Positions 15,433 through 23,439 of a DNA stretch of 29,327 nucleotides are shown piece after piece; positions within the stretch are counted from its first letter, which is position 1, and every line of letters starts with the position of its first letter. Both the position numbers and the translations under genes were made by a program. The stretch comes from a virus (lineage: Duplodnaviria > Caudoviricetes). The stretch spans positions 1 through 29,327 of the IMG/VR virus record IMGVR_UViG_3300031879_000014; one strand, 5' to 3'. The notes under the pieces are model-generated. The model worked only from the letters and a program-made list of their open reading frames with translations. It ran no database searches and had not been told where the DNA came from.

Positions 15433-15972
15433 CTACTTTTTGCCGTCGCGCTTGTCCTGCAAATGAATCGCTAACAAATCCTGAAGATCAGACTTCTTGT
15501 CTTCGTGAGTGTATTCGACTTTTGCCTTGTCCAATCGATCTTTCAGTTGTGGAACAGTTAGCGCATTGACCTCTTCGCAAATATCTTCGTCAATGTCACT
15601 ATCGTCATCGTCGCGTTCAGCAAAACCTTCCGGCCCCCACGGTGAGGGATGCGCGCCAGGAGTATGACCGGCCTGTCGTGGTTCGACCAAAACTCCGTTT
15701 TCACGGTCGAAAGCCCTGCCGGTGTCATAATCCAAAGTGGCTCCCGGCAGCGGAGCGCCACCAGTGTCGTAGACGGCTGCCGCTCTCGCTTCTGATTGGT
15801 AGAACGGGGATTGTGCTGCACTACCGGAAGATTCGTGCTCTTCGGGAGTTTCCGTACCATCGACTCCGAATCGGCGTTCGTTCGCCGGAATCAGATATTC
15901 CCTACCACGATCTCGAAGGTATTGCTTGTCCTCTTCAGACAAAGGTTGATTCAAATCAACAAATCGGCCCAT
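15433..15972 (-). CDS. Acidic protein with C-terminal HeH/LEM-like helix-extension-helix motif, 179 aa
   Basis: LTVPQLKDRLDKAKVEY...KKSDLQDLL; SD GAAAGGA; directly after the major capsid gene. Confidence 0.65.
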   Translation of the reverse strand: MGRFVDLNQPLSEEDKQYLRDRGREYLIPANERRFGVDGTETPEEHESSGSAAQSPFYQSEARAAAVYDTGGAPLPGATLDYDTGRAFDRENGVLVEPRQAGHTPGAHPSPWGPEGFAERDDDDSDIDEDICEEVNALTVPQLKDRLDKAKVEYTHEDKKSDLQDLLAIHLQDKRDGKK

Positions 15973-16037: not shown

Positions 16038-17255
16038 TTAAACGAGGAATCCACCACCGCGAGTGTATTGCGTTGGAATGCTGTAACTCCCCGAAGCTTT
16101 GATTTGCATGATCGCAGCCCCGCCACGCTGGCGGATTCCGGTTCCAAATGACCTGGCATAGAAACCGTCCACCAACGGATAGCGTTGGTTGTTCCCTGCG
16201 ATAACACGCAAACCCTGCATGGCGGGATTCGAATGCTGCCGCATTCCGACTGGATTTGTCAGGTTGAACAGACCACCGTAGGCGACTCCCAACAGATAGC
16301 CCGCTGGAATGTAGTCGTCTTCGATGAGATGCCAGAAACCGTAGGAGCCGATCACAGGCAAACCGGATAGAATCTCAGCCGGTTGGTTTCCAAGCAAACC
16401 TTCCGCGTTCGGCAGAATCATCGGTGGCTGACTTGGGCTTGGAATGAAGTCGTAGCCCGCTGTCACACCGTTGTTGTTGACGATACCTCTACGGAAGGTA
16501 CGTATCACATCGGATTCGGCCTTGTTACACAGAAGTACGAAACTAGTTCCGTACTGTGGTGCGTAACCGTGTTCGGCAATCAACTGAAGTAGATCTTCGA
16601 CATCGGATGAGTCAATGACCGAGTTCGCAGAAATCACGTAGTGATTGTGTGTGGAAGCGAAGGTATTCGTTTTGAAAGGTGGTGGTGCAACACCATCGGC
16701 ATTGTAGAGCGGATAGACGTTGTACGCCTGATTGCGAATGTTCGCTTTGCGAGTTCTGTTGTCGAACAACGCTTCCATGATCTTACGGAACATGAGTCGC
16801 TTGTCGGCCCACAGAACTGCATTGTGAATCGCTTCGACCTGACGTGCGTCCGCATCGGCAAGGAACATCCATGTGTAGGCGTTTCGCTTGTCGTAGTGAC
16901 GCAGATCGTAGCCCATTTGGAACATTTCGATGGGCAACCCGGCACCGCGCGGCACACCGAGTTCTGATGCCTCTTCGAAAGTCAGTTCACCGATTTGAAC
17001 CACAGGTTCGACCGGAACCGTAACCGGATAGGTAAGAATTCCGATTAGATTGTCCATCACTTCGTTGTAAATAGCGATGGATTCGGCGAACTGATCCCAT
17101 AATGCGTTCAGGTCTACACCGTCAGCAGTTACGGTTACCAGATCGCCTTGAGTGAGCATACCCTCTTGGCGAAGTGGTTGCGTGCCACCAAAGATCGGAC
17201 CAACGGGAATGCCGTCAATCGTCAGCAATCCGTTTTCTTGTGCCAACATTGGCAT
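16038..17255 (-). CDS. Major capsid protein, 405 aa
   Basis: Size, position after scaffold and decoration genes, FEEASELGVP E-loop-like motif, C-terminal GTGIRQRGGAAIM strand; followed by a hairpin. Confidence 0.85.
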   Translation of the reverse strand: MPMLAQENGLLTIDGIPVGPIFGGTQPLRQEGMLTQGDLVTVTADGVDLNALWDQFAESIAIYNEVMDNLIGILTYPVTVPVEPVVQIGELTFEEASELGVPRGAGLPIEMFQMGYDLRHYDKRNAYTWMFLADADARQVEAIHNAVLWADKRLMFRKIMEALFDNRTRKANIRNQAYNVYPLYNADGVAPPPFKTNTFASTHNHYVISANSVIDSSDVEDLLQLIAEHGYAPQYGTSFVLLCNKAESDVIRTFRRGIVNNNGVTAGYDFIPSPSQPPMILPNAEGLLGNQPAEILSGLPVIGSYGFWHLIEDDYIPAGYLLGVAYGGLFNLTNPVGMRQHSNPAMQGLRVIAGNNQRYPLVDGFYARSFGTGIRQRGGAAIMQIKASGSYSIPTQYTRGGGFLV

Positions 17256-17289
17256 TCCCTTTCAATTCGTTTTCGATGAAAACTAAGCC

Positions 17290-17766
17290 TTAGAGGCAAA
17301 CTATGAGTCGGCTTGCTTCAACCGTGTGGCCGAGATAAACGCCGGTACTGGTGGTGTTGATCGCGCCGTTCGCAGTGAGGTAATACTTGGTTCCGGCAAC
17401 GGGAGCCGTTGCACCTACCGAATAAAGACCTGCACCAGATACACCGTAATCAGTTGTAGCGAAGTTCGTGATTTCGCCACGTTTGCCGACATCGACAATA
17501 TTTCCGGCTATCGGCGGTTCCAAAAGATAACCGTGTACGTCAACACCGACTGGCATGACGATCACACCGATAATGCCGGTTTGACCGGCCCCGAGTACGC
17601 AAGCGCCGGATGAGTTGAGGCCCACGCCGATAATGAGGTTGGCCTGATCCAGCGTTGCGTCCACTGCCAGCGGAGCGCGGAAGTTACCGACATAGGGGTC
17701 GTATTTGTCCCAACGCGGCTTGACGGCAAGCGCACCAATGACGGGAGGCACTGAGGGAAGAGTCAT
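17290..17766 (-). CDS. Capsid decoration/cement protein, 158 aa
   Basis: Gly-rich beta protein between scaffold and capsid (AGTKYYLTANGAI...YLGHTVEASRLIV); SD AAGGA. Confidence 0.65.
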   Translation of the reverse strand: MTLPSVPPVIGALAVKPRWDKYDPYVGNFRAPLAVDATLDQANLIIGVGLNSSGACVLGAGQTGIIGVIVMPVGVDVHGYLLEPPIAGNIVDVGKRGEITNFATTDYGVSGAGLYSVGATAPVAGTKYYLTANGAINTTSTGVYLGHTVEASRLIVCL

Positions 17767-17855
17767 TTTGAATCCTTACCTGTTAGGTTCGCGATTGATC
17801 TTATCATCGATGACCTGCGATCAAGCGCCAACACGGTTGATTTGACCGGCGTGTC

Positions 17856-18614
17856 TTACGAGGTTCTGCCATGTGCGATCACCGGGAATTTCTTCATCAG
17901 ATCGGCCCGCTTGGACTGTTTCTGCTCGTTGCCGGTGGGAGGCGCGGGGGGCTTGCCCGATCCCCGCTGTGGCTGCTGGGTCCGAGTGTCTTTAGCCCCA
18001 CCTGACTTGAGAAGCCAGGGACTCGACGCCGCGATTCTCTTGACCGCCCCCTCCATGCCGGTCACCGTCGCCTCACCACCGTCAAGGTTCACATCGATTT
18101 CAATTTCGTCTTCGTTCAACTCCGACAAGGCTTGCCGAATCGAATTCCACTGGAAATCGGATTGTGAAAGAAAAGCGTTGATCAGAGCCGTGTTGCGAAT
18201 GACTCGATCCATCTTCTGAATGGTTTGGTTCGCCGTGTCCAGATCGGTTTGCAGTTGCTCTTCTCTGGTCTGGGTCTTTCGGGCGTCTTCCTGTTGCTTC
18301 TGGACATAGCCGTCGCGCTCGGTCGTGACTTTGCTGAGATCGCCTTGGAGCTTCTCAACCTGCTTGAGAAGTTGGCTCAAAGCGTTTGGGTCAGCTTGCA
18401 ATTGGGCTACAGGATCAGGTTTCTGCTCTTCCTGCGGAGTTTGCTGCTGATCGACGCTCTGTTGAAGCGACTGTTGCGCAGCCTGACCTTCGGCGGTTAC
18501 CGGAGGCGTTATGTCGGTCGTGGTGGTACCACCGAAGATCGGCCACGCCTTGAGGGCCTGATTGTAAAGCGATCCCAGGGAATTATGGGAATTGTTGGTA
18601 TTCAACGTCGGCAT
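17856..18614 (-). CDS. Capsid scaffolding protein
   Basis: Gln/Glu-rich coiled coil, PWLLK motif then Gly/Pro tail and terminal helix. ATG 18614 (GAGG upstream) preferred over 18680, which overlaps the MuF-like gene. Confidence 0.8.
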   Translation of the reverse strand: MPTLNTNNSHNSLGSLYNQALKAWPIFGGTTTTDITPPVTAEGQAAQQSLQQSVDQQQTPQEEQKPDPVAQLQADPNALSQLLKQVEKLQGDLSKVTTERDGYVQKQQEDARKTQTREEQLQTDLDTANQTIQKMDRVIRNTALINAFLSQSDFQWNSIRQALSELNEDEIEIDVNLDGGEATVTGMEGAVKRIAASSPWLLKSGGAKDTRTQQPQRGSGKPPAPPTGNEQKQSKRADLMKKFPVIAHGRTS

Positions 18615-18660: not shown

Positions 18661-19581
18661 TCAGGCGGCTTTGCTTGCATTTTGATCTATCCAATCCCTA
18701 TACTGTCCTGCTGTCAAGTGCGCCAGGAACACGTCTGGACTTTCGATGTGGGGCGCGACGAAGCAACGGCACTGCGGATGAGGCTTCGGTGGAACGTTAT
18801 CCACATCAAAAATCTGTCCATTTAATTGTGTGCAGACTTCTTTCGGATCGTTGACATGAACCGCTGAAGTGTACCAACGCATCCCTGTAACCCACGGGCG
18901 ATCTTGTGCCATCGTGATGGCCGTGGCGTGGAAAGCATTATTGAGTTCCGTTCGTCCCAAACGAAGCGCGGCGTAACTTGCACCACCCGATACGTTGGGG
19001 TTGATTGATGATTTAACTTGTTTCGCGATATCTTGAGCACTGTCGCCTCGCAAAATAGAACTGTTAATGACCTGATTTACCCATCCACTAGCTAATGCTT
19101 GAGAACGGTAAACTCGTGCCGATAACGGTTGCTGGGATTGCGTAACGCGAGAGATTGCGTGCGCGACCCCTAAAGCCGCACTTTGTCTTTGACTCGTGAT
19201 GAAAGAATTCAAATCAACTGTGGTTAAAGCTTCTGTCAGATATTTCATATCAGTTGCGTTCAAAGCGTCAACGGCTGCGATTGCCTCTTCCCGCTGACCA
19301 CTCCCGATAATCGGGATCAATCTTCGAAATGTAGTTCGCAGAATCGACTTGGCTTCGTTTTGAGCTAATCTGATTTGAGCGGTTCGAACGCCAGAAGACC
19401 ACGTTGTCTTATGACTTAAATCGGTAATGGCTTGTTCGGCATCGTTTGACGCCGCGGTTAAAACGTCTCTGATCAACGCTTCGTTTTTGACTTGCTTCGC
19501 AAGAAATGCTCCCAGCCAACGCCGGTACAACGTTGACGGCGGCTCAATCGCAGCGGCTTGGGCGGGAGTGGGGGCGGTCAT
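18661..19581 (-). CDS. MuF/SPP1 gp7-like minor head protein
   Basis: LRLGRTELNNA...W...CTQLNG...PHPQCRC signature. Start ATG 19581 gives an ATGA overlap with the JAB gene (ORF track start 19680 is probably too long). Confidence 0.85.
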   Translation of the reverse strand: MTAPTPAQAAAIEPPSTLYRRWLGAFLAKQVKNEALIRDVLTAASNDAEQAITDLSHKTTWSSGVRTAQIRLAQNEAKSILRTTFRRLIPIIGSGQREEAIAAVDALNATDMKYLTEALTTVDLNSFITSQRQSAALGVAHAISRVTQSQQPLSARVYRSQALASGWVNQVINSSILRGDSAQDIAKQVKSSINPNVSGGASYAALRLGRTELNNAFHATAITMAQDRPWVTGMRWYTSAVHVNDPKEVCTQLNGQIFDVDNVPPKPHPQCRCFVAPHIESPDVFLAHLTAGQYRDWIDQNASKAA

Positions 19582-20030
19582 ATTAGCGACCACTCTATCA
19601 CTTCGTGCCTGGTGGCGATCCAATAGCGCCATCTCAGAGCAGGATTCGGCCACCCCGCCAGATCGCGAGGGGTCGGCCACGGCACGTTGTTGGGATGCGT
19701 GTGGAAGATTCCGAGAACCTTGTCTTCTCGTTCCTTATAGATAGCACGAAGAGCAGAGTCAAAATCCTCTTGCGACATCAAAAAATTATGTGTCGGTTCA
19801 TGGTGGATATTTTCAACATAGATAACTTCTTGCTCTTCAATGGTGATTAATCCACATCTTTCATTTCGATTCGCCAAACACTGTGAAATCAATTCGTGTT
19901 GTACGCTCTCAAAGAGAAGTATGTCGGGATGCCAAATTCTTTCCGCTTCCCGATCCGTTTTAATCAACTGATTGCAGTTGGAAGGATGGGCAGGATTGTT
20001 AAAATCGGTGTCTTGGAATGGATAAGGCAT
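19578..20030 (-). CDS. JAB/MPN+ (JAMM) Zn-metalloprotease, 150 aa
   Basis: N-terminal catalytic Glu (NERCGLI) plus HTHPNNVPWPTPRD = H-x-H-x7-(S/T)-x2-D JAMM motif. Confidence 0.9.
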   Translation of the reverse strand: MPYPFQDTDFNNPAHPSNCNQLIKTDREAERIWHPDILLFESVQHELISQCLANRNERCGLITIEEQEVIYVENIHHEPTHNFLMSQEDFDSALRAIYKEREDKVLGIFHTHPNNVPWPTPRDLAGWPNPALRWRYWIATRHEVIEWSLI

Positions 20031-20036
20031 CAGATA

Positions 20037-20654
20037 TTATTTCCTAGATGCTCTGCGCCTCTGTCTTCGTGGTTTTGATTGAGCCGTTTTTTGTCCTGCG
20101 ATAGCAGACATTCGTCTATCATATTTTTTGATACCGACCACACTTTTTTGAACAGGAACCTTGTGCTTTCCTCTGCGAACGATAACAGTAGGCCCAACAC
20201 CGCGCGATGTCCCAAGACGGAATTGCGCTCCCTTATAGGGAACTCTTGTTTTGGCGACAGTGCTAACTTCGACATGAGATCGGAAAGCAGAAAGAGCCTT
20301 GCCGCGTCGGGTGCCTTTGGGGAAGACATGTCCGACTGTTTTGTCAACAACTCTATCGAGTTTTGTTTTCTTACTGATGGATTCGATTCGCACATATTGA
20401 CCTGTCACCACCCTTTTACTGCTGCCAGGAATCCTTGTTCCGGCGTTATATCCCACCGTCGCGCTCCGCTTGTTGATCCGCGCATACGGGATAAAATTCG
20501 CTCTAAGTCCTCCAAGCCCTTCTGGACGTGGGGCTTGCGGAACGCGAGCCGAAACCTTGGCAATGCGCCGACCGCGACGAGCCACAGCAGAAGCCAACTG
20601 CGCCTTGCGGAGCGCGGCGACTCTTGCCGGTGTCATCACATGTTGGCGCGTCAC
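20037..20654 (-). CDS. Highly basic protein, leader-family member (MTPARVAALRKAQLASAVARR), 205 aa
   Basis: GTGA overlap with the upstream gene; shared N-terminal motif; Arg/Lys-rich. Confidence 0.85.
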   Translation of the reverse strand: MTRQHVMTPARVAALRKAQLASAVARRGRRIAKVSARVPQAPRPEGLGGLRANFIPYARINKRSATVGYNAGTRIPGSSKRVVTGQYVRIESISKKTKLDRVVDKTVGHVFPKGTRRGKALSAFRSHVEVSTVAKTRVPYKGAQFRLGTSRGVGPTVIVRRGKHKVPVQKSVVGIKKYDRRMSAIAGQKTAQSKPRRQRRRASRK

Positions 20655-21670
20655 TTCAACGTCGTCCCATGCATACGCAAACCTTTACGAATCCGGCGTT
20701 CTTTACGGAATTCCCTGCGCGCCCTCTTGTTCAAATTCAGCTTCGGTTTGACAGTTCCACCCGTGTATTGCGGGCGACCTCGGAAATAACCGAGTGCGGC
20801 TTGACGATGACCGTAAGAAACCTTCTTGCCTTTGGATTCAACTGATTTCGTATAGGCTGCGGTTCGCCGCAATGCTTCAGCTTCGGAAATCGACTTGTTG
20901 TATCCTTTGAGATTTTGGCCTTTAACCTTCCCGCCACCGAAGTGTTTGGGCATAAGACTTCTCGATGGAACAGTTCGCTTCGTTTTTCCTGGCTTACCGA
21001 ACGGACCTGTGTGCAATCGGCCTGGCGTTGGATGCCCGATTGAGGCGTGATACATTCCGGTGTCGCGTGCCGGTAACAGAATCTTCCGCTTGCCTTTCAT
21101 TCTCAACGCAGCGCCGGTATAGGCTTCCGGCGTCTTCGGATAATTGAACCGCGCCATCGTTTTCATTTCGCCTTGAGATGGCTTGTACGGTTTCAATCCG
21201 GCTTGCGGAGTGGTTTTACGGCCCAGAATATGAGACGGCTTGAGCGGCTTGTGAACATACGTGATCGTTGAATGCGAACCGAGCGGACCCTGTTTCTTTC
21301 CCGAATACTGAACCTGATATCCACCACTAGTTCGTCCGAGAACCTTTCCTTTCGGGGTCACATTCATGTGAGTAATACGGCCATGTGTCAACGAACGTGG
21401 ACGGGAGCCGGTGAGATTTCCCGTCAACGGTCCCACAGGGCCGTGCCTGGTTCTGGTCAATGTCGAACCGGAAAGTTTGTGCCGCTGATATCCGGCAGCA
21501 CCGACAAAACCTACCGCCCCAACAACCCCCGCCCCAATCGCAGCACGTTTGATTCGTCTTTTGGTAGTCGGAGTGGGATGAAATTTGCGACGTTTGGCCG
21601 CTGAAATAAGGGAAGCTTTGTGAAGTGCTGCCCTGCGACTTGCTGTGAAAACTCCATATCGCCTCGCCAC
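20651..21670 (-). CDS. Highly basic protein, leader-family member (FTASRRAALHKASLISAAKRR) with Gly/Ala hydrophobic segment, 339 aa
   Basis: GTG start overlapping the upstream TAG; about 8 acidic residues in 339 by my count. Confidence 0.85.
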   Translation of the reverse strand: MARRYGVFTASRRAALHKASLISAAKRRKFHPTPTTKRRIKRAAIGAGVVGAVGFVGAAGYQRHKLSGSTLTRTRHGPVGPLTGNLTGSRPRSLTHGRITHMNVTPKGKVLGRTSGGYQVQYSGKKQGPLGSHSTITYVHKPLKPSHILGRKTTPQAGLKPYKPSQGEMKTMARFNYPKTPEAYTGAALRMKGKRKILLPARDTGMYHASIGHPTPGRLHTGPFGKPGKTKRTVPSRSLMPKHFGGGKVKGQNLKGYNKSISEAEALRRTAAYTKSVESKGKKVSYGHRQAALGYFRGRPQYTGGTVKPKLNLNKRARREFRKERRIRKGLRMHGTTLK

Positions 21671-22146
21671 TATTTCACTCGCCTTATATAATTACGGGAA
21701 TTTGGCCGTTTCCCTTTTAAATTCGGATTTGGATTCTTGATAAGAGTCAAACGATCTTTACGTTGTGTATAGGCAGTGTGATAGAACTTATCTGCGTCGG
21801 AATGAACTTTAATTCCGCTCAACCCTCGTGCGCCGGAATGTGCCGAAGGATGCATAGACATCGATGTCTGTCTGACATGAGCTTGTTTTATTTTGTAAGG
21901 TACATACGTCCGTTGCCCGACAGCGTTAACCGTTGCCCCCAAAACCACTGATCCGACCAGAGCGCCACCGGCAATTCCCAAAGCCCTTCGTCTCATTTGT
22001 CTTTGAGTGGTTGCGTTTTGAACATAACGAGTCGCAGGATTTCTGCTGCGTCTACGTCCACGGCGTTTTGCAGCAGAAGCTAACTGCGCTCTACGTAACG
22101 CTGCACGTCTGGCGGGAGTAAAAGAACCGTAACGTCGGGCCATCAT
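21670..22146 (-). CDS. Highly basic protein, leader-family member with hydrophobic segment, 158 aa
   Basis: MARRYGSFTPARRAALRRAQLASAAKRRGRRR; ATGA overlap; 3 Asp, no Glu. Confidence 0.85.
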   Translation of the reverse strand: MMARRYGSFTPARRAALRRAQLASAAKRRGRRRSRNPATRYVQNATTQRQMRRRALGIAGGALVGSVVLGATVNAVGQRTYVPYKIKQAHVRQTSMSMHPSAHSGARGLSGIKVHSDADKFYHTAYTQRKDRLTLIKNPNPNLKGKRPNSRNYIRRVK

Positions 22147-22769
22147 AGACCCCGTATAGTCTTGCGAACCGATCTTTTCAAACCGCGAGTCTGAATTCTA
22201 GCCGCCCGATCTGTTTTCCATTTTCGTGTCTTATATTTCCTGTAAGATTGTCTTGGTGTTACTTCATCCATCTTCTTAGCCAAGCTGCGTGTCTTTACAC
22301 CAGATATGACACTCGAATGATGATAACCAGCTTTATAAATTCTTCTCTTGGTTCTAGCTTCTACTCCAAATAAAGTCGGGCCACCTTTATCCCATACTTC
22401 ATCTGGTAGTGGTCTACTGATATGACCGCGAACAGTGACTCTCTTTGAAAAATGCCCAGGATCAACGTATAGTTTGCCTCTTCTACCGGCTTGATTAGCT
22501 CTTGCATTAACTTTTCTGGCAGACTTCATCATACGATTCAGTTCGCTGCCAGTTGAATGCGTCTGAGCCGAGAAATACGATCCCGAAGCATAATGCCGTG
22601 CCGCTAAAACGCCGACCGCTGCACCAGTTCCCACCGCGCCATACTTAACGATTTTCCTTTGACGCGGAGTTAATCGTCTACGCCCACGTCTCTTCGCCGC
22701 AGAGGCTAATTGCGCCCTACGTAAAGCCGCTCGCCTCGCGGGAGTGAAACTCCCATAGCGTCGGGCCAT
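22143..22769 (-). CDS. Highly basic protein, leader-family member with hydrophobic segment, 208 aa
   Basis: First 32 aa identical to the neighbouring gene. Confidence 0.85.
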   Translation of the reverse strand: MARRYGSFTPARRAALRRAQLASAAKRRGRRRLTPRQRKIVKYGAVGTGAAVGVLAARHYASGSYFSAQTHSTGSELNRMMKSARKVNARANQAGRRGKLYVDPGHFSKRVTVRGHISRPLPDEVWDKGGPTLFGVEARTKRRIYKAGYHHSSVISGVKTRSLAKKMDEVTPRQSYRKYKTRKWKTDRAARIQTRGLKRSVRKTIRGL

Positions 22770-22775
22770 TTCAAT

Positions 22776-23003
22776 TTAATAGCCAGGCTTCCCTTTGACT
22801 TTCATCGCCGGGGGAGCGCCACCGGGAATCGGACGAGGATTTGTCCAGTTACGTGGATTCTGCGCTTTGATCTCATTCGGAATCGGCTGACCGGGAAGCA
22901 CGGCTTTGCCGCTCTTCACGATAGCGTTTTTCGGCAACCCCGCCACGCGAGCCGAAGCGTGACCCTGAATCATCTTCGGTTTGCCGGAAGTTCCTCTAGC
23001 CAT
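22776..23003 (-). CDS. Small basic Pro/Lys-rich protein, 75 aa
   Basis: Strong SD AGGAG 7 nt upstream; one acidic residue. Confidence 0.8.
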   Translation of the reverse strand: MARGTSGKPKMIQGHASARVAGLPKNAIVKSGKAVLPGQPIPNEIKAQNPRNWTNPRPIPGGAPPAMKVKGKPGY

Positions 23004-23019
23004 TTCAATCTCCTAACTA

Positions 23020-23439
23020 TTAGAGCTTATGCCTTTTCTGAATTCTCATAGCCTGATTTTGATGCATCATCGCTGACTTGGCTAAACGTCTGGAAACCGG
23101 ATGAGTGCTGGGAAGGAATCTAGACGCTTTCCTAGCCGTCTTGGCTTGTTGGTTGTGCTTATACATTCGGTCATAAGCGGTAGCATGAGAGTAAGCGCCG
23201 ACTGCCGCTGCTGCGCCCAAACCTACCGCAGCGTATTTCAAACCCTTTTTTACTTTGCTTCCTTTTTGGAAATCACGAGATTTGACTTGAAAACTGGCTT
23301 TGGCATAGCCTGTCCGTTGACCAATAGAACGTCTCAACGTTTGTGGAACTGTGCCATGCCGTCTGCGTTTCGCAGCGGAAGCCAGTTGCGCTTTCCGTAA
23401 CGCGGCGCGTCTCGCGGGAGTCAAAGTATAAGTAGCCAT
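23020..23439 (-). CDS. Highly basic protein, leader-family member (LTPARRAALRKAQLASAAKRR) with hydrophobic segment, 139 aa
   Basis: TAATG overlap with the upstream gene; shared motif; 2 acidic residues. Confidence 0.85.
   Translation of the reverse strand: MATYTLTPARRAALRKAQLASAAKRRRHGTVPQTLRRSIGQRTGYAKASFQVKSRDFQKGSKVKKGLKYAAVGLGAAAAVGAYSHATAYDRMYKHNQQAKTARKASRFLPSTHPVSRRLAKSAMMHQNQAMRIQKRHKL

Follow-up and report, generated by a model that had tools for sequence, protein, structure and literature searches.

How do two unrelated head proteins of a tailed phage come to carry the same short motif near the N-terminus, and which enzyme would read it? The question is raised by a stretch of 29,327 nucleotides from a member of the Caudoviricetes (IMG/VR record IMGVR_UViG_3300031879_000014, positions 1 to 29,327; the whole stretch is called the window below), in which the major capsid protein and the scaffolding protein both contain the sequence PIFGGT. 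The window holds siphophage head and tail genes on the minus strand. Its gene order (portal, basic proteins, JAB, MuF, scaffold, minor capsid, major capsid) is the same as in mycobacteriophage Patience, a relative whose capsid protein gp23 shares 79% identity, and its capsid protein matches 162 cultured-phage records, nearly all from phages of actinobacteria. The explanation preferred here, with a probability of roughly 60%, is proteolysis by the JAB class of metalloproteases: in some lineages the host would supply the enzyme that removes the leader ending in the motif, and in the lineage of the window this enzyme would be a JAB carried by the phage.

In the original prediction the motif was placed in the leaders of both proteins, spelled with partly different codons, and a JAB gene was placed two genes upstream of the scaffold. 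All of this was confirmed (Table 1): three third codon positions differ between the capsid and scaffold motifs, and MuF is the gene that lies between JAB and scaffold. A 6-mer shared anywhere among the non-basic proteins of the window was obtained in 63.5% of 2000 shuffles, and one real chance pair is present (GGAPPA, in the tape measure and a 75-amino-acid protein). A 6-mer common to the first 40 residues of capsid and scaffold was obtained in 0 of 2000 shuffles. Across the 46 JAB-carrying loci described below, each phage's own motif was found in just 1 of 780 other open reading frames (ORFs). The real support for the motif, as far as the compared sequences tell, is its conservation and covariation across relatives. 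Two looser motifs that had been mentioned along with it, PIPGG (residues 58-62 of the 75-amino-acid protein) and HFGG (in a 339-amino-acid protein), are present but gained no support as further sites. The 75-amino-acid protein and the HFGG region matched only three loci, all identical to the window, and both motifs were rejected as further substrates because homologous support is lacking.

Published data on Patience, where PIFGGT is found in both the scaffold and the capsid protein, bear directly on the fate of the leader. According to the available sections of the 2014 proteomic paper (PMC4324244), the most N-terminal peptides of the scaffold gp21 begin at residue 35, after a Gly, at a position that is non-tryptic and has no start codon. 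These peptides are acetylated; there are 11 of them, while a twelfth retains the Gly, and the start was left unexplained by the authors. Residue 35 is the Thr of PIFGGT. In a later study by cryo-electron microscopy (cryo-EM; PMC11965321, sections covered), the Patience capsid model begins at Thr20 (PDB 8GIU), which is likewise the Thr of PIFGGT. The capsid model of phage Adjutor (8SAJ) begins at Asn28 in the same source, one residue past the predicted LSGH↓D27 site (the arrow marks the bond cut) that the Adjutor capsid and scaffold have in common. The Patience mass spectrometry and cryo-EM strongly support the claim of a common propeptide that is taken off after GG, and removal of the leader at the GG↓T bond is considered very likely.

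For the comparison across relatives, 277 usable loci were reduced to 150 at <85% identity. Of these, 46 carry a JAB, 21 are at least 90% complete and 11 are 81-89% complete without one, and 72 of unknown JAB status were dropped; site calls in this set were corrected by hand for six capsid and three scaffold proteins. In 16 cultured relatives a matching site is present on both proteins, for example KFFAFGG↓DGG in Madi, IYGA↓E in Sadboi and LSGH↓D in PBI1. A leader profile was seeded with the window and Patience sites and then refined on the leaders; by this in-sample measure, scores higher than the 95th percentile of 407 control windows are reached by 49 of 58 capsid leaders and by 45 of 48 scaffold leaders. 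The sites give the consensus hydrophobic-x-Gly-x↓D/E/T. Among the 46 JAB carriers the first Gly is conserved, the next residue is mostly G, A or S (else H, R, N, Q, C, F, W or D) and the cut is mostly followed by D, E or T. Only 13 of the 46 have GG at both sites. The term di-glycine motif is therefore apt for the lineage of the window but not for the family, where the second Gly varies, and a strict di-glycine signal was rejected.

The scaffold and capsid motifs also vary together. Within a phage they agree at 2.24 of 4 variable positions, compared to 0.91 after shuffling (54 phages), and 0 of 20000 shuffles rose above 1.33. When only 13 lineages of <55% identity are considered, the agreement is 2.54 versus 0.89. 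Since the two proteins are unrelated and their motifs nevertheless track each other, one reader for both is implied. Moreover, the leaders are present or absent on capsid and scaffold together.

The candidate for this reader is the JAB. The window protein matches PF14464 with 43 bits (cut-off: 25), and its catalytic E...H-x-H-x7-S/T-x2-D is intact (E57, H110, H112, T120 and D123, in an alignment of 33). The nearest solved structure is archaeal JAMM1 (5LDA, E 5e-4). The Patience JAB, gp19, gave 11 spectra late in infection, none early and none in particles, and is listed as 'Protease' (PMC4324244, in the sections covered). Among the JAB-carrying loci, the catalytic motif was found in 39 of the 40 JABs seen, and in 36 of 46 the gene lies no more than 6.5 kb upstream of the end of the capsid gene. 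A leader is present in 46/46 JAB carriers, and a JAB in 0/15 leaderless phages. The expected co-occurrence of leaders and JAB genes holds in this direction but not in the other, as 17 phages have a leader and no JAB. Strict coupling, complete in the 16 cultured phages, is broken by the metagenomic genomes. The JAB is the best, as yet unproven, candidate for the protease, as had been proposed.

In four cultured phages (Shrew, Sparcetus, Krampus and Wollypog) the JAB lies outside the head module. Only that of Shrew passes the Pfam cut-off; the other three are divergent and keep the His-Ser/Thr-His and the downstream Asp. Streptomyces phage Dryad, which is outside the match list of the capsid family, has a JAB together with the leaders LLAAGG↓A and FWYASG↓D. 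Some cluster D records in GenBank call the JAB a 'capsid maturation protease', with no substrate in the label. The two other window proteins with a protease label in PHROGs were rejected for this role: the basic 205-amino-acid protein is found in 5 of 16 GenBank stretches and does not track the leader, and MuF is present in 12 of 13 leaderless loci checked. At one locus (L011:3565-3844) the JAB match comes in two pieces with an internal stop, from an assembly error or a broken gene.

The preferred explanation can be put as a sequence of steps. PIFGG↓T would mark a short N-terminal propeptide on scaffold and capsid that is cut after the second Gly, and the cutter would be the zinc JAB that the phage itself encodes two genes upstream of the scaffold, an enzyme produced late and left out of the particle. 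The enzyme may bind hydrophobic-x-Gly-x as an extended strand, in the way that JAMM enzymes bind a ubiquitin-like tail, and may act on soluble or procapsid-bound subunits. Late in infection, 24 residues would be taken off the capsid protein, which would then start at T25 (TQPLRQEG) and drop from 44.4 to 42.0 kDa (computed). From the scaffold, 29 to 51 residues would be removed, its start being ambiguous: ATG 18680, 18635 or 18614 gives a leader of 51, 36 or 29 residues. The predicted scaffold cut falls at the border between the hydrophobic leader and a low-complexity linker. The new scaffold N-terminus would subsequently be acetylated; the acetylated Thr suggests that a host acetylase can reach this end. 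Removal may serve timing or folding and not be strictly needed, because uncleavable mutants of Staphylococcus phage 80alpha are viable (PMC5744158, sections covered). As to history, the site may have begun as a copy of the (I/V)LPAVAGG tail of a host protein handled by a host JAB of the Mec type, or may have been held to it in JAB-less lineages, while phages with their own JAB would have let the site drift to hydrophobic-x-G-x↓D/E/T.

Several points weigh against this explanation, and the first of them concern the cut itself. The supplement of PMC4324244, as far as covered, numbers the gp21 Thr as 56 and not as 35. In gp21 the pair Gly-Thr is found at 34-35 and 184-185 alone, and neither start puts a Gly-Thr at position 56. 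That paper, in its available sections, proposed a capsid cut at 82/83. This position was rejected, as one peptide was behind the proposal and the later model includes Thr20 and Asp40. Patience gp23 has no Lys or Arg in the 74-residue stretch between residues 24 and 98, so that upstream capsid peptides would escape trypsin mapping. Furthermore, the absent cryo-EM density at the capsid N-terminus could be disorder rather than cleavage, and absent density is all the capsid evidence from Patience. The motif could then mainly be a binding or folding signal, read by a common partner or chaperone, with cleavage incidental or limited to the scaffold. Such a role would fit 80alpha, where capsid and scaffold mutants that cannot be cleaved are viable and the scaffold leader itself is essential (PMC5744158, sections covered). 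However, the same bond marks the end in two independent data sets, and the Adjutor model begins one residue from the predicted site. In addition, conservation is centred on the Gly, and both proteins change sharply there from hydrophobic to acidic residues. A role mainly in binding or folding is considered very improbable.

A second group of points concerns the JAB as the cutter. Of the 15 leaderless phages, 13 belong to one clade, which brings the contrast down to about three independent points, and JAB status is strongly clade-structured, with 7 changes on a quick tree. Gordonia phage Gray has a stand-alone JAB (gp116, L499:2468-2938) that lies well away from its head genes. It also has an S78 protease of the HK97 type, and its capsid protein does not start with such a leader. 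Gray, the clade structure, the further leader types in the capsid family, and the fact that the window spans well under half of a Patience-sized genome all leave room for a different protease. This would be another host enzyme or the product of a phage gene outside the 29-kb window, and the JAB would just travel with the capsid lineage. It is an unlikely solution, given that 41 head-region ORFs of nine relatives (eight of them JAB-less) gave no match to a protease family, that the residue behind the site changes with the presence of a JAB, in one nested contrast too, and that the two PHROG-labelled 'maturation proteases' of the window do not track the leader.

The third group concerns the relatives that lack a JAB. 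It had been stated beforehand that a motif common in phages without a JAB would implicate a host protease, and this is partly what was found: a leader is still present in 17 of the 32 relatives without a JAB. The phage JAB is thus not needed for the leader, and a host enzyme is implicated in those phages. PF14464 matched 11 of 50 long records. When 19 records were rescanned over their full length, using a custom profile together with a pattern for the motif, one hidden JAB came to light (in G028) and 18 records remained without; ten of the 18 have Gly-type leaders on both proteins. The custom profile missed the Krampus JAB, so that very divergent copies could escape it, although the pattern was written to fit the Krampus motif. 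Among the 17, eight (picked by eye) have hydrophobic-x-G-[GA] on both proteins, two have the site on the capsid only and six have other leaders. The last of the 17, L380 (81% complete), has the D-type site, and a JAB was not found in it. The residue after the site is A or S in 16 of 16 sites of the eight JAB-less phages picked, compared to 6 of 92 in JAB carriers. In L339, a JAB carrier nested in a JAB-less clade, the sites have shifted to LEGG↓R and LAGG↓D. The JAB-less motif differs systematically from that of the JAB carriers and resembles the substrate of the host JAB. The scaffold of one JAB-less phage gave no match among cultured phages.

The host enzyme in question, Mec, cuts after the Gly-Gly of a sulfur-carrier protein. 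In actinobacterial genomes the JAB adjoins a ThiS/MoaD-family carrier and a cysteine synthase, which is the mec-cysO-cysM arrangement described in PMC8280819 (sections covered). Other JAMMs cut linear fusions after the Gly at the carrier's C-terminus (PMC8832034, sections covered). In 33 host loci, the carrier tail (I/V)LPAVAGG was found in 31 of 31 carriers; it is extended past GG in 17 of them, with Ala first in 10 and Ser in 3. The capsid leaders of JAB-less phages (ILPGVAGG↓A, ILPGIAGG↓A, ILPMVAGG↓A) come close to the host ILPAVAGG. Their similarity to the host tail has a median of 27.5 (n=10; five of the ten are one clade), versus 6.0 in the 46 JAB carriers and a control 99th percentile of 15.5, although an internal loop of some mature capsids scores equally high, up to 32.5. 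A score of at least 20 is reached by 8 of 11 complete JAB-less leader phages and by 3 of 46 JAB carriers. The window sites score 8.5 and 4.5, below the control 95th percentile of 10.5. The idea of a mimic of a ubiquitin-like C-terminus is thus best supported in the capsid leaders of JAB-less relatives and not in the window's own motif. The scaffold leaders of JAB-less phages are unlike the host tail (5.5 vs 2.2). That phage JABs are recent copies of host Mec is not supported either: the three tested share 24-36% identity over meaningful lengths.

Of 201 sampled Actinomycetes genomes, 183 have a host JAB of the Mec type (the 183 include three unpublished genomes, G077, G082 and G089, which are used for this tally only), so the host enzyme may be available to the window phage too. 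It could even make the cut in all lineages, that of the window included, with the phage JAB as an auxiliary or with another substrate. The complete leader-bearing genomes without a JAB, the capsid leaders that copy the carrier tail and the direct parallel with host Prp in 80alpha are all in line with this. The window sites do not resemble the host tail, however, and in JAB carriers the position ahead of the cut also takes H, R, Q, N, F or W. Furthermore, a JAB was found in 0 of 41 genomes from the family of a Cryobacterium record, whose phages have leaders. Phages of Microbacterium and Curtobacterium, which presumably belong to the same family, have leaders and a JAB-like gene of their own. 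Cutting by the host JAB throughout is accordingly regarded as improbable.

The last points against the preferred explanation concern what a JAMM enzyme reads. The phage leader, judged by its sequence, is without a ubiquitin-like domain: no beta-grasp domain precedes the Gly, and the leaders of 24 and 29-51 residues have no match to a ThiS or ubiquitin family. HvJAMM1 cuts linear SAMP1 fusions without needing a di-glycine (PMC8832034, introduction), which suggests that JAMMs usually read the fold. A wider scenario can only be advanced tentatively. Actinophages would mature their heads with enzymes of the deubiquitinase class, and capsid leaders would mimic the C-terminus of the host carrier to be clipped by Mec. 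Patience-like lineages would have captured a JAB, after which the site would have been free to drift from Gly-Gly and growth in hosts without Mec would have become possible.

Leader classes differ within this one capsid family. In a JAB-less group (L253, L258, L320, L161 and L175), long helical leaders end in ...(A/T)MM↓A/E on scaffold and capsid, and another class has a DLRxAF motif common to L263, L265, L273, L166 and L172. The C-terminus of ubiquitin is LRLRGG; phage Onyinye (L020), with the capsid leader KLLVRGG↓E and the scaffold motif KLRLRFG, comes much like it. Capsid-gene matches in bacterial genomes number four. The three examined are lone capsid genes whose flanks are without portal or scaffold, and they gave no information on hosts. 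They lie in actinobacterial chromosomes and have short leaders (L389:10001-11089, IFGA↓M; L390:9977-11128, IWAG↓D; L391:9962-11083, IRGA↓D). Possibly, they are satellites that use the protease of a helper.

How does the proposed processing relate to known systems? The module and gene order are those of Patience gp19/gp21/gp23. The closest parallel in principle is 80alpha with the host protease Prp, where a non-homologous scaffold and capsid also have a common short hydrophobic leader that is removed (PMC5744158 and PMC9405229, sections covered); here the shared leader is seen in the window and its removal in the published Patience data. The 80alpha leader copies L27, the substrate of the host protease, just as the JAB-less relatives copy the tail of the host sulfur carrier, and a phage-borne member of the protease clan exists in Cp-1, according to the sections covered. 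The differences are these: the motif is hydrophobic-x-G-x↓ instead of LQ[FH]F↓A, the enzyme is a zinc JAMM instead of a cysteine protease (C108), and the candidate is encoded by the phage within the window. No match to the Prp family was found among 27 window proteins.

The catalytic residues of the phage JAB are the same as in the archaeal JAMM1/desampylase, Deinococcus DRJAMM and actinobacterial Mec. In contrast to these prokaryotic systems, identity is only about 25%, the phage leaders have no ubiquitin-like domain and the second Gly is not conserved. In HK97- and T4-type phages a phage-encoded enzyme, upstream of the scaffold, trims head proteins, and the candidate JAB of the window would do likewise. 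Those enzymes are serine proteases (S78, U9) that remove long domains or degrade the scaffold. The window has a separate scaffold gene and a 24-residue leader, and no match to the S78 or U9 family was found among its proteins. Processing of a virion assembly protein, at a Gly, has also been proposed for a phage JAB, namely in tail protein K of lambda and T1 (JAB + NlpC/P60) with protein I (PMC1779556, sections covered). There, the genes lie in the tail module, the JAB is fused to NlpC/P60 and the substrate has a true ubiquitin-like domain, unlike the JAB of the window, which is stand-alone, 150 amino acids long and part of the head module. The K protein is likely the source of the 'tail protein' label on the window JAB gene.

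No literature linking a JAB to capsid or scaffold processing was found in the searched literature, which was mostly without subscription papers. The covered sections of PMC7150772, PMC9405229, PMC1779556, PMC10893344 and bioRxiv 10.1101/2022.09.09.507160 make no such link to head proteins. In the sections covered of PMC4324244 and PMC11965321, the shared motif is not named and the processed N-termini are not tied to gp19. Shared cleaved leaders are already known from 80alpha/Prp; the enzyme class and the mimicry of a host tail would be new if true. JAMM metalloproteases would then join the enzymes that mature phage heads, and there would be an explanation for the unexplained proteomic finding of 2014 and for why two solved capsids have trimmed N-termini. 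The gene, which >100 phage records label variously as capsid maturation protease, metalloprotease or tail protein, would gain a substrate. The known JAMM specificity would also be widened by a JAB whose target is a short peptide lacking a ubiquitin fold or second Gly. Mimicry of the host tail predicts that the host gene mec is needed by one phage group and not by another.

Table 1. Head-module features of the window and the evidence attached to each
Feature	Position	Strand	Evidence or remark
Major capsid protein, 405 amino acids	16038..17255	-	phrog_3990 E 4e-169; Patience gp23 79%; PDB 8GIU E 1.6e-225
Capsid leader, residues 1-24, last residues PIFGG	17184..17255	-	Predicted scissile bond between codons 17184/17183; Patience model begins at equivalent Thr20
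Capsid PIFGG↓T motif, residues 20-25	17181..17198	-	CCGATCTTTGGTGGCACG
Minor capsid protein, without leader motif	17290..17766	-	Patience and Adjutor minor capsid models keep the N-terminus
Scaffolding protein, predicted mature start TTTTDITP	17856..18614	-	phrog_4866 E 1e-46
Scaffold PIFGG↓T motif, residues 25-30 from ATG 18614	18525..18542	-	CCGATCTTCGGTGGTACC; predicted scissile bond 18528/18527
MuF-like minor head protein, 306 amino acids	18661..19581	-	PF04233, TIGR01641
Stand-alone JAB/JAMM metalloprotease, 150 amino acids, likely maturation protease	19578..20030	-	PF14464 over cut-off
Basic 205-amino-acid protein, PHROGs label 'head maturation protease'	20037..20654	-	Without Pfam or NCBIfam match

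A promoter scan of the window gave no signal above chance. Between portal and JAB (20037-23439, minus strand), five Arg/Lys-rich ORFs have a common N-terminal stretch like PARRAALRKAQLASA, possibly a shared packaging or DNA-binding tag; in Patience, the genes in the same place code for abundant virion proteins (PMC4324244, sections covered). Downstream of the capsid gene, the ORF at 15433-15972 (minus strand) is a homolog of Patience gp24, of which the same sections report particle peptides from the N-terminal half only. A motif of the leader type was looked for in this homolog and none was found, so a second processing event may exist. In two relatives MuF is fused to a further stretch, an ADP-ribosyltransferase domain in L339:6212-8218 and a PI3/PI4-kinase-like stretch in L330:4481-6235.

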